From: Branchiostoma floridae
Taxonomy: Eukaryota
Assembly: GCF_015852565.1 (NCBI RefSeq)
Contig: NC_136205.1
Coordinates: 3,130,707 to 3,194,706 of the forward strand
Direction: 5' to 3'
Length of the DNA: 64,000 bases
This document shows, one piece after another, positions 18,201 through 63,313 of this stretch (positions are counted from its first letter, which is position 1; every line of letters begins with the position of its first letter). The position numbers and the translations under genes were made by a program. The notes under the pieces were generated by a model that was not told where the DNA came from, did no database searches, and was given only the letters and a program-made list of their open reading frames with translations.

Positions 18201-19621
18201 ATGAGATATAAAAGTAAGATCCGTAAGAGCAAACTTTTTGCCTTACATATTTCATATATTGATACCATGTACAATCATTATGGGTCAATTGCTACTGTAA
18301 CAATAGTATTACATAAAAAATCAAATTAAAGCATTTGTAGTGGAATTACCGTGAATGCTAAGTTTACTGCTTTATTTTATAAGCTACAAAAGTTATGACT
18401 CGAAACGCAAGATCATATTCCCATTTACACTATAATATCCACTTTAATATATACAGTGTATCACTAATATACTACAACAAACATCTCTAGTTCTAAAAGT
18501 CTCGTTTGGCCCCATATAAGAATCAACTAAAATTTATTAATTTTACGCTTTGGACAAACAATGACAATGTGGCACTACACTCAAGTTGACAACTTATTTT
18601 AACAGTGCCACTAAAATGTACAATGTACAAAGAACAACATTCTTGATAAGGTAAAAGCTAGACGCATAGCCTTATTGAGGCCCCTCCTTTTTCTTTTTTA
18701 CTTCTTTTTCTTAACATTCATGTGATTGATATGAAACCCTAAGATCAATTTTAAGAACAACATAAGAAACCTGCCTTTTTGCAAATCTCGCGTCACATCG
18801 CAGCTATCACGTGCCGATTGTCTCGTGAGTTGAAGAAGACAGCGAGAATAAAATATTCGTGCTTTATTGAATGATGTAAGATGTTACAAAGCAGCTACAT
18901 AACCTTATTTATCTTTGGAACAATAGCCCATCAACATTTTTGCGTTATCTTTATACTATGATTTTTTATTTTTTATTTAGGCCACAGCAAGTAAATTTTA
19001 TGGATGACATCCGCGCGCTCATTAATTTTCGCCTGATTTCAGAAAAAAAAACAAGAATTTTTTTCTTCTCCAGTGAAGGCCTAATAGATGAAAATGGGTA
19101 AAGGTTGTGTTGTAACCTAATCATTGAATGTTGAATTGACACTAGAGACTCTGTAGCATTGACTGCAGTTGCAGAGGTGCAACTTGATAGATAGTTGTAA
19201 ACTATGGAAGCTATCAGTGTAGTTGCCACCATGGTTAATGATACCAGTCTACCACACTAGTGTCACTTTAACTACACTGGTGCACTTCTTAAATACAGGA
19301 ATGAATGCCTTGTTGGCTGTGATGCCATATTTTGTCACTTCAACTTAGTTCAAGTCTTATTACAACGTCTATTTTGAAAAATTGCCATCTTGTTTTTTTA
19401 CCCATCTTGTTTTTTTTCTCATTATTTTTGCAGTCTTCAGAGGATGTCATCCATAAAATTTACTTGCTATGGCCTTATTGATCTTATGGGGTGGTCCCTT
19501 CAGTCAGCAGACTGATTTCCAAGGGAGCCCTGTATAATGTCACAGTGATTCTCTTTCTAAACTCTACGCATTTCAAAAATTCAATAAAAGTCTGACGATC
19601 GAGGCTAAGTGCAAGGTTACG

Positions 19622-19918: not shown

Positions 19919-20497
19919 ATTTGTAAAAAAAACGAAATAAAATGACAATGATCGTTATTGCGCAATAACAAAATCTTTATTGCATGTACATGTCCAACAT
20001 AGGTTAAATGCATTTTTTCAGGTATCTCCTCCTGGACTATGTAACTCAAGTAGCAGTCTTAAGAGGTTATGTTATGATCTAATCTTATTCTCTTTCTTCT
20101 TCTTAAAACGGTCGGAGAAATTTACATTCTCTCTATTACATTTCAGATTTTAGATGGCATCATTGACTAAACGTGAACATTTTATGGTTTGCGCATATCC
20201 GTGGATATATAATAAAATAAAGTCAAGTAATATGAAATATAACTAAAATGCAAGTTAACGCTCTGAACGTCTGTCCAGCTTCCACAGGACAATTGCACTC
20301 ACGTGACTCGACCGCCATATTGGATGATTAAACTTGGATGTTGTCATGTGGCGATCACGTGAACAACACATGCATAAATCCGCAAATCTACAGGTTTCAC
20401 TCCTTCAGATTTACATAACTAGTTTCGTGGATGTGACGTCATTTGCAAGACGCTGACAGAACAACAACAACAACAGTTAACAAAAACTAAGACGCAC

Positions 20498-57405: not shown

Positions 57406-57499
57406 AGCTACATGGATCCATGCAGCATGCACACATGTCGCTGCTCCAGTCGCGTCTCTGCGGGCCCACTGTGGTGATTCCAGGCTGCTGGGTGATGAC
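57406..57499 (-). CDS. PLAC8-family gene A, exon 2 (VITQQPGITTVGPQRRDWSSDMCACCMDPCS-), the start of the PLAC8 domain.
   Basis: It matches the PLAC8 N-terminal consensus (VVTQPG...W.tG.CdC..D...C). The acceptor is ttgtccag|GTC and the donor is AGCT|GTGAGT, leaving phase 1. Confidence 0.75.
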
Positions 57500-57835
57500 C
57501 TGGACAACATGACCAAATATGGAGGCATTTGCACTCACGTGACTGTGACGCAAGTATTGTCTGCCATGTTGGATGATTAAATCTGACCATCACCACAGTG
57601 GTGATTCCAGGCTGCTGGGTGATGACCTGGACAACATGACCAAATATGGAGGCATTTGCACTCACGTGACTGTGACGCAAGTATTGTCTGCCATGTTGGA
57701 TGATTAAACCTGGCCATCACCACAGTGGTGATTCCAGGCTGCTGGGTGATGACCTGGGTAATATGACCAAATATGGAGGCATTTGCACTCACGTGACTGT
57801 GACACAAGTATTGTTTGCCATGTTGGATGATTAAA
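57451..57835. repeat. Tandem repeat of about 127 bp in three copies. Each copy includes the exon-2 acceptor and the first ~35 nt of PLAC8-A exon 2, plus intronic sequence.
   Basis: The motif gtggtgattccaggctgctgggtgatgacctgg recurs at 57471, 57578 and 57705. The unit is not a multiple of 3. Confidence 0.8.
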
Positions 57836-58320
57836 CCTGAAAGTTGTCTGGTGCGTAGTTTGTCTGGCCATGTTGATTTGATTATATAGTTGACATCCTC
57901 CCGGAACCCCAAAACTGATGCGAGCGTGGGAATAAAAAAGTTTTGACCAAAATGAATTTAAATGTTACCTTCATTATGAAATCTAAGAGGTCAGGAAGGT
58001 TGAAGAAATAGTGATATAATTGAACAGAATATAGTATACCGAACAACAGATTCTTTATTATTGTTCTTTCACATCTTCTTTGACCGGAATATTCTATGAC
58101 ATTAGTACTATAGTATACGTTTTCCGATATTTGTTTTGCAATACACGACATATATTTGCTTGTTTTGAAACTGCTTTTTACGATTTACACTGTATGGTTG
58201 AAAACTATTTCTTTTTCTTTTTGGAAACGTTTGAAAAAATGATACGGATGTCATCTACGTTATGATCAAACGAATAAGGCATTATATGCAAAAAGGGGAG
58301 TGAAAGCTATACATTACCAC

Positions 58321-58572
58321 TTGTTGTTGCATAGGTGCCAAAGGAATGCCCGAAGCCACAGGGGCAGACGTTATGGGCATGGCCGAGGCCCCAGGGTCCG
58401 GTGCCATGGGCAAGACCGAGGGCACAGGACCAGGTGCCATGGGCATGGCCGAGGTCAAAGGTCCATGTGCCATCATGCCGGGATTCATCGTTGCGTCATA
58501 GCTTGGCGGCGCCGGGTCAAAGGTCATCCCCTTTTCGCCCTGCGTTGGATCAGTTGTCACACCAGTCGCCAT
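58321..58572 (-). CDS. PLAC8-family gene A, exon 1: a Pro/Met/Ala-rich N-terminus (MATGVTTDPTQGEKGMTFDPAPPSYDATMNPGMM...PLAPMQQQ) containing a PPxY motif.
   Basis: The ATG at 58570-58572 has a caaaATGG context. The donor follows CAACAA(GTGGTAATG); the boundary is uncertain by about 3 nt. The paralog's exon 1 ends at the equivalent position (PMQPQ|gtaaaa). Confidence 0.65.
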
Positions 58573-62619: not shown

Positions 62620-62719
62620 AGCTGTTGGGGTTGTCGCAGCACGCACCCAGACCGCTGCTCCACTCACGTTTCTGCGGGCCCATAGTGGCCACGTACCCGC
62701 CAGGCTGCTGGGGGATCAC
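62620..62719 (-). CDS. PLAC8-family gene B, exon 2 (VIPQQPGGYVATMGPQKREWSSGLGACCDNPNS-).
   Basis: The acceptor is cttttcccgtcag|GTG and the donor is AGCT|GTGAGTAG. Confidence 0.8.
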
Positions 62720-63313
62720 CTGACGGGAAAAAGTGACAGACCATTTATTTAGTACTGAATTTTACGTATAAAACCGTGCATTGCAAAAACATGGTGCTTA
62801 TTGTATTTATGATGTCATGAGTTAGTTTATCAGCACCATACATGTACAGATTATTCATGAATTTCCTCATAGTAAAAAAAAAGTGAACACCTTCTTGTGA
62901 GAAAAGGGGCCAGCGATGGTGTCAGTCCATTTTTTTACTAATACGAAATTCATGAATCACCTTCTCGTAAACAAAATTTGTCAAGTTTTGTACCCATTAT
63001 TAGCACATCTCTTTGTAGTTAGTACGTGTTTCGAAAAAAAAATCATTTTAGGGCTAAAAATGGGATAAATAACCAATCCTTAAGTTACGATAAAGCTATT
63101 AATAAAGCCTTTTAGGTCGTAGAGACAATAGGTTGTTGTCCACTTTGTATATGGCACGGTATTGGGAGCGGAGTCGAACTCTTTCTTTACCGAAGTCAGG
63201 AACCCATTTTCCACCTGAAAATCGGAACACACACTAAAAAAACAAACTTTTAACATATTTATCCCATTTTACGTCATATATTACATTCAAATTGAGCAGT
63301 AGTGACGTTTTAC

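Follow-up and report, generated by a model that had tools for sequence, protein, structure and literature searches.

The array of tandem repeats that lies across the boundary between intron 1 and exon 2 of a PLAC8-like gene in Branchiostoma floridae raises the question of how a gene came to carry several copies of one of its own 3′ splice sites, where the repeated sequence originates, and what it may do to the transcript. The host gene, referred to as PLAC8-A, is located on the minus strand of the window, i.e. the whole stretch of 64,000 nucleotides that was analysed. The spliced model of exons 1 to 4 encodes a protein of 201 amino acids, which matches the Pfam family PLAC8 (PF04749) with an E value of 1.4e-10, is identical to RefSeq entry XP_078585415.1 and shows 99% identity to XP_035659817.1. 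The coding part of exon 1 (58318-58572, minus strand) starts with the ATG at 58572 and is followed by a GTAATG donor after 58318, intron 1 extends from 58317 to 57500, and the authentic exon 2 (57406-57499), which comprises 94 nt and leads from phase 0 to phase 1, is flanked by an acceptor AG at 57501-57500 and a GTGAGT donor at 57405-57400. A preliminary description of the locus had assigned the repeat unit to a PLAC8 gene, in which it was placed across the junction of intron 1 and exon 2, and the Pfam match and the identity to XP_078585415.1 bear this out.

The array consists of three head-to-tail units of 127 bp and occupies positions 57466-57846 on the minus strand, as established with Tandem Repeats Finder, a repeat search and a table of the aligned units. 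Tandem Repeats Finder reports a period of 127 bp with 3.0 copies, 96% matches, zero indels and a score of 694 (window positions 57466-57840), and the repeat search delimits the copies at 57466-57592, 57593-57719 (98%) and 57720-57846 (91%). The triplication proposed in the preliminary description is confirmed by both; the coordinates given there, 57451-57835, denote the same object but are off by 11-15 nt. In gene sense the units are W3 (distal, 57846-57720), W2 (57719-57593) and W1 (proximal, 57592-57466), with identities of 91-98% and pairwise differences at 2-7 positions per 120 nt. Each unit comprises the 86 nt at the 3′ end of intron 1, terminating in CAG|, the 34 nt at the 5′ end of exon 2, and a 7-nt filler. 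On the gene strand the sequence ...TCCAG|GTCATCACCCAGCAGCCTGGAATCACCAC(A/T)GTGG is common to the three copies, and hence all AG acceptors are intact, whereas the remainder of exon 2 (57499-57406, with its GTGAGT donor) is contiguous with the proximal copy only. The earlier claim that each copy retains the acceptor and about 11 codons of exon 2 thus agrees with the alignment, in which the exon part measures 34 nt and the loss of an intact AG, considered there as a possible objection, is seen in none of the copies. The three potential acceptors that it counted upstream of the authentic exon are in fact two decoys and the authentic one.

The 7-nt filler is absent from the ancestral sequence, as follows from the unit table and the interspecies alignment, and is located at both internal junctions (minus strand): TGATGGT at 57586-57592 between W2 and W1, and TGATGGC at 57713-57719 between W3 and W2. 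At the W2/W1 junction it lengthens the palindrome CCACNGTGG to ATCACCAC-N-GTGGTGAT, and the filler looks as if it was templated from the opposite strand, possibly through a fold-back template switch. With both known alleles taken together, TGATGG(C/T) is found at 6/6 internal junctions, including 4/4 in a five-copy allele, and the sharing of one filler by all internal junctions indicates a single founding duplication.

This five-copy allele is present at the same locus in the reference assembly GCA_000003815.2, which has 5.0 copies as compared to 3.0 in the window. Copy number is therefore polymorphic between the two B. floridae alleles, a variation for which the preliminary description had suggested looking. 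In the other species the segment occurs once, at the corresponding position: in B. belcheri (locus L002, 8652-8755; 83%), in a B. japonicum-type haplotype (L003, 16496-16599; 84%) and in B. lanceolatum (L004, 10958-11046, 81%, and also L005, 10695-10772). The single copies in these species mark the array as specific to B. floridae. A comparison of the eight units at 22 variable sites reveals that unit variants are shuffled between the alleles, with the acceptor variant TTACCCAG located in the distal unit here, while the reference carries it in its two proximal units. The distal units W3 and R5 are the most divergent from their neighbours, R5 being the only unit with the ancestral TTACGTCAT, while internal and proximal pairs of units differ at 2/120 nt. 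Such a pattern is suggestive, but only suggestive, of concerted evolution in which the edge units have been left out of homogenisation.

It is highly probable that the array represents an amphioxus 'mirage' minisatellite, generated by tandem duplication of the gene's own intron/exon boundary. Taking the definition of a mirage from PMC3087553 and PMC3902484, the locus displays a head-to-tail repeat, a unit that includes a splice boundary, a Branchiostoma gene as its host and a difference in copy number between two alleles. The phenomenon as such is already described in amphioxus, and what is new is the locus, a PLAC8-like gene. Mirages have been reported for the globin genes BflGb6 and BflGb9 (Ebner et al. 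2010, PMC3087553). The units of the BflGb6 mirage measure 150-160 bp and join the 3′ end of an intron to the beginning of exon 2; one haplotype has 6 of them and another 3, splicing proved to be regular when examined by RT-PCR, and in the globin mirages, too, the edge units are the most divergent (PMC3087553). The mirages of Adh, TnC and PGBD5 copy splice sites without giving rise to aberrant mRNAs (Pavelitz et al. 2013, PMC3902484).

The PLAC8-A array shares nearly the same design with BflGb6, and its unit of 127 bp falls in the published range of 10-160 bp. In common with the amphioxus mirages it has boundary-crossing units arranged head-to-tail in a Branchiostoma gene, a copied splice signal, a haplotype difference in copy number, edge units that seem the most divergent, and an annotated mRNA that uses the authentic site. 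Unlike them, it carries a deeply conserved non-coding element in its intronic part, a donor-like GTGAGT in each unit that results in complete 88-nt pseudo-exons, and a 7-nt filler that is seemingly templated from the opposite strand. The Adh3 mirages, with which the term was reportedly defined by Canestro et al. in 2002, are also said to display somatic instability. Ordinary intronic VNTRs or minisatellites show similar tandem units of about 100 bp, polymorphic copy numbers and concerted evolution, but differ from PLAC8-A in that the unit of the latter, far from being anonymous intron sequence, comprises coding sequence and what looks like a functional 3′ splice module.

Assemblies are prone to errors where repeats stand in tandem, and a misassembled mirage in an old draft genome was noted by Ebner et al. 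(PMC3087553). A repeat that was collapsed or expanded by the assembler was considered here as well. Such an artefact is extremely improbable. The array is present at the same place in two independent assemblies, its junction is consistent, and each unit has distinct substitutions, with the units of the independent assembly carrying their own. The window haplotype matches the PacBio long-read hybrid assembly, and in the hybrid-derived assembly PacBio reads of more than 8 kb span the 381 bp of the array many times over.

With regard to the source of the unit, the preliminary description had observed that a segment of it recurs at 20290-20345, and concluded that the unit had its source in a dispersed element. 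The recurrence is genuine: blastn aligns the array to this region in two 19-nt blocks, each with 18/19 identical positions but with a different spacing. With blastn and nhmmer the core of the element (CAAGTTTAATCATCCAATATGGCGG..AGTCACGTGAGTGC) is located a second time, shorter by 13 nt, at 20283-20342 on the minus strand, within the intron of the SRCR-WSC-CUB gene that separates its transmembrane (TM) exon from its cytoplasmic exon. The sequence GTCACGTGAG occurs four times in the window (three times in the array and once at 20298-20307), versus 0.07 occurrences expected. A PLAC8 pseudogene was considered as the source of this copy and rejected, as tblastn with the PLAC8 exons yielded no credible match near 20 kb.

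Insertion of a dispersed or transposable element beside exon 2 could account for the presence of the intronic core in an unrelated gene. It might also seem to be favoured by a genuine member of a MITE family located 26 nt from the array, since the MITE terminus ATATAATCAAATCAACATGGCC resembles the 5′ part of the element, GTTTAATCATCCAACATGGCGG, at about 17/20 positions with one gap when compared by eye. Even so, we regard this origin as very unlikely. In three other species the unit has a collinear, single-copy orthologue in intron and exon sequence (81-84%), and the unit includes 34 nt of coding sequence in common with the neighbouring paralogue, where the copied exon part finds its homologous counterpart in exon 2 (match at 62700-62722). 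The copied exon part can be taken, on the strength of this homology, as ancestral coding sequence. In a search with an nhmmer profile of the element against the window and eight further loci, together about 238 kb of amphioxus DNA (64 kb + 174 kb) and as such a small sample relative to the whole genome, the copy at 20283-20342 was the only other locus detected, all remaining matches being positional counterparts or copies in the introns of PLAC8 paralogues. The 20283-20342 copy itself recurs in the reference allele (L007, 6435-6491), B. lanceolatum has it at the orthologous site, and the intron that contains it is conserved in that species and motif-dense. Neither terminal inverted repeats (TIRs) nor a target site duplication (TSD) were found at the 127-bp unit, and its sequence runs unbroken into exon 2. 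The single-copy occurrence in three species, the profile search and the conserved intron all oppose the proposed derivation from a dispersed element.

The neighbouring MITE (57866-58280, no strand assigned) was identified by an exact match of its TIR, GGCCATGTTGATTTGATTATAT, and by alignment to a complete B. belcheri copy of 246 bp. It occupies half of intron 1 and, like other amphioxus MITEs of this TIR family, is truly dispersed, with three sites in the window and several in other loci. It adjoins the unit, but its sequence ends before the array, and the intervening 26 nt are orthologous to intron sequence of B. belcheri. Moreover, the MITE is not present in the B. belcheri orthologue, whereas the unit sequence is; the MITE is an entity separate from the 127-bp repeat unit. 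The segment 57866-57890, which was considered as a decayed fourth unit, is the MITE terminus. Another candidate mirage in the window, a 132-bp array of 13.9 copies at 1751-3586, was rejected as well, being a coding TPR repeat in one long open reading frame.

Two decoy acceptors lie upstream of the authentic site. Decoy acceptor 1 (AG at 57628-57627), with the exon 2 start repeated after it (57626-57593; together 57593-57628, minus strand), does not differ from the authentic site at any position between -45 and +29. In decoy acceptor 2 (AG at 57755-57754, exon 2 start copy at 57753-57720; together 57720-57755, minus strand) the AG is intact and the pyrimidine tract carries three substitutions (tcatATTACccag). 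Because W1 and W2 are identical over any splice-site scoring window, MaxEnt-type scores are uninformative. For the same reason the sequence of the sites does not by itself explain why decoys are ignored, and any preference among the acceptors should originate from more distant context.

The proximal acceptor (57499) is joined in the RefSeq models of both alleles (XP_078585415.1 for the present one and XP_035659817.1 for the reference), giving ...QQQVV|ITQQPGITTVGPQRRDW, and neither model bears an isoform label. No peptide from unit read-through or from a pseudo-exon occurs in any of the 5.8 billion proteins searched. The use of the proximal acceptor is read from these two automated models and the absence of other predicted proteins, and minor or NMD-degraded isoforms would escape both RefSeq models and protein databases. 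Since 127 equals 1 modulo 3, read-through from either upstream acceptor leads to a stop at residue 144-158. Every unit of the window array furthermore contains a donor-like CAC|GTGAGT, matching the consensus at 8/9 positions. Together with the acceptors these form complete pseudo-exons of 88 nt, which potentially extend from the W2 acceptor to the donor-like site of W1 (57539-57626, minus strand) and from the W3 acceptor to that of W2 (57666-57753, minus strand). Enumeration of the splice paths reveals that the frame is kept only when an 88-nt pseudo-exon replaces the 94-nt exon 2, all other paths ending in a premature stop; the in-frame product would lack RDWSSDMCACCMDPCSC, the start of the PLAC8 domain. 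The frameshift that had been predicted for the use of an upstream copy therefore holds for read-through but not for an in-frame replacement of exon 2.

These properties could be taken to mean that the duplicated acceptors and pseudo-exons are really used, either in regulated unproductive splicing or as a nascent exon that is replacing exon 2. The decoys equal the authentic site also in pyrimidine fraction (0.67), each pseudo-exon combines an acceptor with a near-consensus donor, the replacement is frame-neutral, and a role of mirages in seeding new exons or introns was proposed for the globins (PMC3087553). Such a use is nevertheless improbable, considering that the models of both haplotypes contain the proximal site only, that no predicted protein includes a pseudo-exon peptide, and that the published mirages of Adh3, TnC and globin genes are free of aberrant mRNA (PMC3087553, PMC3902484). 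The truncated domain of the in-frame product and the premature stops of the remaining paths argue against it too, as do the units of the reference allele, one of which already has an in-frame TAG while another has lost the donor-like GT.

Related arrangements resemble the PLAC8-A mirage in part. Exons 2 and 3 of alpha-tropomyosin are mutually exclusive through steric hindrance. In PLAC8-A the donor-like site of a pseudo-exon is located 39 nt from the next acceptor, so that the two probably cannot be spliced to each other, and exon 2 is alike in phase class; the likeness is purely structural, and the alternative PLAC8-A product would be devoid of an essential part of the PLAC8 domain. NAGNAG acceptors likewise offer several AGs to the same upstream donor, but these are 3 nt apart, use one common branch point and result in an in-frame change of a single codon, whereas PLAC8-A has whole 3′ splice modules at a distance of 127 nt that shift the frame. 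In the Rogers model (cited in PMC3087553), introns or exons are gained when a segment that spans an AG|GT proto-splice site is duplicated in tandem. As in that model, an internal duplication in PLAC8-A adds splice sites and a potential 88-nt exon of the right phase, but the duplicated exon part is now intronic instead of being spliced around, and the pseudo-exons are putative. Intron gain by tandem duplication across AG|GT was reportedly also described by Hellsten et al. in 2011.

The intronic part of the unit is a conserved non-coding element of ancestral origin. The approximately 90 nt preceding exon 2 are the sole part of intron 1 that can be aligned between species, with identities (80-85%) similar to those of coding exons 3 and 4 (78-86%). 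In the array, nhmmer locates the element (GTTTAATCATCCAACATGGCAG...TTGCGTCACAGTCACGTGAGTGC...) on the minus strand at 57510-57589 (E 1.1e-22), 57637-57716 (E 7.2e-24) and, in the distal unit, 57764-57845 (E 3.6e-22); the first intron base of the donor-like site is at 57538 in copy 1, and the donor-like GTs of copies 2 and 3 are at 57665 and 57792. A core of 21 nt, CTTACGTCATAGTCACGTGAG, is invariant in four single-copy orthologues or paralogues, i.e. those of B. belcheri and B. japonicum and two B. lanceolatum genes. The motifs CACGTG, ACGTCA and ATGGCGG are conserved under constraint, and we take them to be an E-box (within GTCACGTGAG), a CRE-like and a YY1-like site, respectively. B. belcheri also carries a copy of the element with no acceptor attached to it, in the intron of PLAC8-B (L002, 167-230). 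The strong constraint in the other species suggests that the array may not be a neutral minisatellite.

A structured RNA or a known RNA family in the unit was rejected: Rfam gave no matches in the array at E ≤ 1, and RNAalifold assigned the element a covariation term of +1.28 (a penalty), with compensatory changes in 2 of 29 pairs, which leaves the fold unsupported. The element was also considered as coding sequence, whether as an N-terminal extension or as an alternative first exon, and this was dismissed, as the upstream ATG meets a TGA after 10 codons. Its reading frame is broken between species by indels of 1 nt and 3-5 nt, and a hypothetical 44-nt microexon within it would begin with GTT TAA. 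As neither the coding frame nor RNA pairing is conserved, protein-binding DNA is the simplest reading, and the conserved element of approximately 60-80 nt may constitute a candidate cis-regulatory module.

If so, the array could act as a regulatory VNTR that multiplies this module, for instance an intronic enhancer or internal promoter, such that expression of PLAC8-A scales with the number of copies. This is a reading about function rather than structure, and it is compatible with a mirage origin. It gains from the exon-like conservation, the invariant core, the acceptor-free copy in PLAC8-B, the further copy in the motif-dense, conserved intron of the SRCR gene, and the lack of frame conservation and covariation. 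However, most array copies in B. floridae carry a derived TTGCGTCAC instead of the ancestral TTACGTCAT, and in one reference unit the E-box is lost (CACATG), changes that suggest relaxed instead of reinforced constraint; conservation beside an acceptor, moreover, could reflect branch-point or other splicing signals. On balance a regulatory VNTR is possible but rather unlikely. The E-box CACGTG overlaps the donor-like GTGAGT, and changes of the type CACGTGAG>CACGTGTC provide a way to separate the E-box from U1 pairing.

For the mirage, the following course of events is proposed. In the B. floridae lineage a PLAC8-like segment of 120 nt, made up of the terminal 86 nt of intron 1 and the adjoining 34 nt of exon 2, would have been duplicated once, leaving the 7-nt filler at the junction and thereby creating the 127-bp unit. 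Copy number would subsequently have been altered by unequal exchange or replication slippage, to three units here and five in the reference. The extra copies lie within intron 1, each of them a complete 3′ splice module that can serve as a decoy. The normal transcript would be produced from the proximal copy, which alone leads on into the other 60 nt of exon 2 and the GTGAGT donor, and occasional use of a decoy would mostly lead to a premature stop and, presumably, degradation.

A PLAC8-like gene thus joins the amphioxus genes with mirages, and long-read assemblies confirm that such arrays are real and variable in copy number. With two or four decoy acceptors, depending on the allele, the array offers a clean natural experiment on splice-site choice. 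It is conceivable, though doubtful, that the mirage is not silent, and that by multiplying an element which resembles a promoter or enhancer and has been conserved for 50 million years or more, together with 88-nt pseudo-exons, its copy number tunes PLAC8-A. In that case individuals with three and with five copies would differ in their PLAC8-A output, owing either to the dosage of the enhancer or to decoy splicing with NMD, the 39-nt spacing would force mutually exclusive use of pseudo-exon and exon 2, and the locus would represent a new alternative exon caught in the act of birth from a boundary duplication. As a side effect, an intronic element that is deeply conserved and may be regulatory has been multiplied by the array. 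This by-product of the analysis, common to PLAC8 paralogues and a nearby receptor gene and constrained like coding exons, is a candidate cis-regulatory module.

The PLAC8-A gene lies on the minus strand, with exon 1 running from the ATG at 58572 to 58318 (donor GTAATG), exon 2 at 57499-57406 (donor GTGAGT), exon 3 at 56907-56768 and exon 4 at 56239-56123. When spliced, the four exons encode a 201-aa protein with a Pfam PLAC8 match (PF04749, E 1.4e-10), which is 99% identical to XP_035659817.1 and agrees at every residue with XP_078585415.1, a protein annotated in the assembly of a B. floridae x B. japonicum hybrid. These matches indicate that the window represents a B. floridae-type haplotype. 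Amphioxus hybrid genomes were built from PacBio reads to phase a highly heterozygous genome, with a heterozygosity of 3.2-4.2% and a species divergence of at least 50 My (PMC10013865). The RefSeq models of both haplotypes read ...PMQQQVV|ITQQPGITTVGPQRRDW, which places the junction at the proximal acceptor (57499). Upstream on the same strand lies another PLAC8 gene, PLAC8-B. In addition, exon 1 contains an imperfect 33-bp x 4.3 repeat (58333-58473), encoding 11-aa repeats in a Pro/Ala/Met-rich N-terminal region, and intron 2 contains a 55-nt inverted repeat (56934-56988/57143-57197) whose arms are 85% complementary and separated by 154 nt; it may be a further small foldback element.

With a score of 694, Tandem Repeats Finder detects an indel-free array at 57466-57840 that has a period of 127 bp, 3.0 copies and 96% matches, and a repeat search of the window resolves three in-register copies at 57466-57592 (W1, proximal), 57593-57719 (W2, 98%) and 57720-57846 (W3, distal, 91%). 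The triplicated acceptor-bearing unit of the preliminary description is present, with an acceptor in all three copies, its coordinates having been 11-15 nt off. In gene sense all copies contain ...GCAAATGCCTCCATATTTGGTCATGTTGTCCAG|GTCATCACCCAGCAGCCTGGAATCACCAC(A/T)GTGG, while the remainder of exon 2, GCCCGCAGAGACGCGACTGG..., follows the proximal copy only. In gene sense the unit comprises a 7-nt junction filler, TGATGG(C/T), followed by 83 intronic nt, the CAG acceptor and 34 nt of exon 2. The exon portion matches exon 2 of PLAC8-B (62700-62722, 91%) and thus represents ancestral coding sequence. In the distal unit the ancestral flank CAACTTT takes the place of the filler. The window contains a further tandem array, of 132 bp x 13.9 (1751-3586), which is coding and specifies 44-aa TPR-like repeats within an uninterrupted 1196-aa ORF on the minus strand (1622-5212).

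At the same site the reference B. floridae allele (GCA_000003815.2, L001) carries 5.0 copies (7195-7823, 95% matches, score 1139), as against 3.0 in the window, which bears out the suspected copy-number variation. Between units there are 2-9 substitutions per 120 nt, on a par with allelic diversity in B. floridae. The acceptor variant TTACCCAG occurs in the distal unit of the window and in the two proximal units of the reference, including its authentic acceptor, and the ancestral TTACGTCAT is kept solely by the reference distal unit. Such shuffling of unit variants between alleles is the expected product of unequal exchange or gene conversion. The segment is unrepeated in B. belcheri (L002), in a B. 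japonicum-type haplotype (L003) and in B. lanceolatum (L004, L005), indicating that the array originated in the B. floridae lineage.

The same filler, TGATGG(C/T), is present at 6/6 internal junctions across the two alleles, so that every unit derives from a single founding duplication. The filler is found on neither side of the ancestral sequence. At each unit junction (57586-57601 and 57713-57728) it lengthens the natural palindrome CCACNGTGG to the 17-nt ATCACCAC-N-GTGGTGAT; the chance of four additional palindromic bases is ∼1/256 in what is a post hoc test. Compared with the exon in reverse complement, CCACTGTGGTGAT-T-CCAGG, the junction, CCACTGTGGTGAT-GG-CCAGG, agrees at 18/20 positions. 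These matches hint that the filler may have been copied from the opposite exon strand, in which case the founding duplication would have involved a fold-back template switch and then renewed priming at CAGG microhomology.

Alignment of B. floridae with the other species is possible only in the exons and in the ∼90-105 nt preceding exon 2. This stretch shows 80-85% identity, equal to that of coding exons 3 and 4, which makes the intronic portion of the unit a conserved non-coding element, with consensus CAGGTTTAAYCAYCCAACATGGCGGACAATACTTACGTCATAGTCACGTGAGTGC and an invariant core of 21 nt. A copy precedes exon 2 in a second B. lanceolatum paralogue, and others lie in intron 1 of PLAC8-B in B. 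belcheri (L002 167-230) and the B. japonicum-type haplotype (L003 10714-10768), away from any acceptor and separated from exon 2 by several hundred nt; no copy is detectable in PLAC8-B of B. floridae. A further copy (20283-20342, minus strand; L007 6435-6491 in the reference allele) is located in the SRCR-WSC-CUB gene, in the intron between the TM and cytoplasmic exons. The recurrence of a unit segment at 20290-20345 is real, comprising two blocks of 18/19 each, and GTCACGTGAG occurs 4 times in the window (0.07 expected), but the derivation of the unit from a dispersed, transposon-like element is unsupported in view of the cross-species alignment, and a profile search of ∼238 kb of amphioxus DNA revealed no further locus. 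The SRCR-WSC-CUB (DMBT1-like) intron after the TM exon is ∼73% conserved with B. lanceolatum over its whole length (20200-20490, minus strand; L007 6285-6600; L006 20020-20350). It is dense in TGACGTCA, contains three CACGTG motifs and ATGGCGG, and has a promoter- or enhancer-like appearance. B. belcheri has a different intron at this position, with a MITE inside. The element itself shows no frame conservation, Rfam match or covariation, and the simplest reading is a putative cluster of protein-binding sites, with motifs that may be those of YY1-, CREB/ATF- and USF/Myc/TFE-type factors.

Half of PLAC8-A intron 1 is occupied by a MITE (57866-58280, TIR GGCCATGTTGATTTGATTATAT), which ends 26 nt from the array and is not present in the PLAC8-A intron of B. 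belcheri. Other family members are found in the window (5315-5705 and 18995-19051), in L001 (6293-7169), in L003 and in L008 (27886-28131). Compared by eye, its terminus matches the 5' part of the conserved element at ∼17/20 positions with one gap, which may be coincidence. Inside the MITE of the reference allele lies a 162-bp x 2.9 tandem array (L001 6459-6932) that is missing from the window allele and constitutes a second length polymorphism in intron 1.

The upstream copies had been proposed to act as competing, frameshifting acceptors. From -45 to +29 the acceptors of W1 and W2 do not differ, and that of W3 shows three pyrimidine-tract differences. The pyrimidine fraction from -20 to -3 is 0.67 in 3/3 copies, slightly weaker than the 0.72 at the other acceptors of the gene, and with 86 nt of intron per unit a separate branch point is presumably available to each decoy. 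If splicing used the W2 or W3 acceptor, read-through would add 127 or 254 nt and reach a stop codon at residue 158 or 144, respectively, in agreement with the proposed frameshift. Each unit also contains CAC|GTGAGT, matching the donor consensus at 8/9 positions, with the next acceptor 39 nt downstream. An acceptor and the next donor-like site thereby delimit potential 88-nt pseudo-exons on the minus strand, at 57753-57666 and 57626-57539. Inclusion together with exon 2 gives a premature stop. Substitution for exon 2 is the one path without a frameshift, because 88 and 94 both equal 1 modulo 3; its product would be missing RDWSSDMCACCMDPCSC, with which the PLAC8 domain starts. No read-through or pseudo-exon peptide was found in any protein of a 5.8-billion-sequence collection. 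In the reference allele, unit R3 (L001 7443-7569) carries CAGTAG, an in-frame stop within its exon-derived portion, and in unit R4 (L001 7316-7442) CACATG replaces CACGTG, which removes the E-box along with the donor-like GT. These changes are signs of decay and fit unconstrained decoys. It is rather improbable that the array is a regulatory or splicing-active VNTR, with a nascent alternative exon.

Amphioxus minisatellites that duplicate an intron/exon boundary, known as mirages, have been described before. The globin mirage of Ebner et al. has 6 and 3 units on two haplotypes, is spliced regularly as judged by RT-PCR, and shows concerted evolution in unit trees, from which the edge units are exempt (PMC3087553). 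These authors cite Adh3 (Canestro et al. 2002) as the original description, plus further loci (PMC3087553), and a second paper on amphioxus mirages is that of Pavelitz et al. (PMC3902484). The PLAC8-A array belongs to this class: it is a copy-number-variable mirage minisatellite, a known and well-explained type of structure that is new for PLAC8-A.
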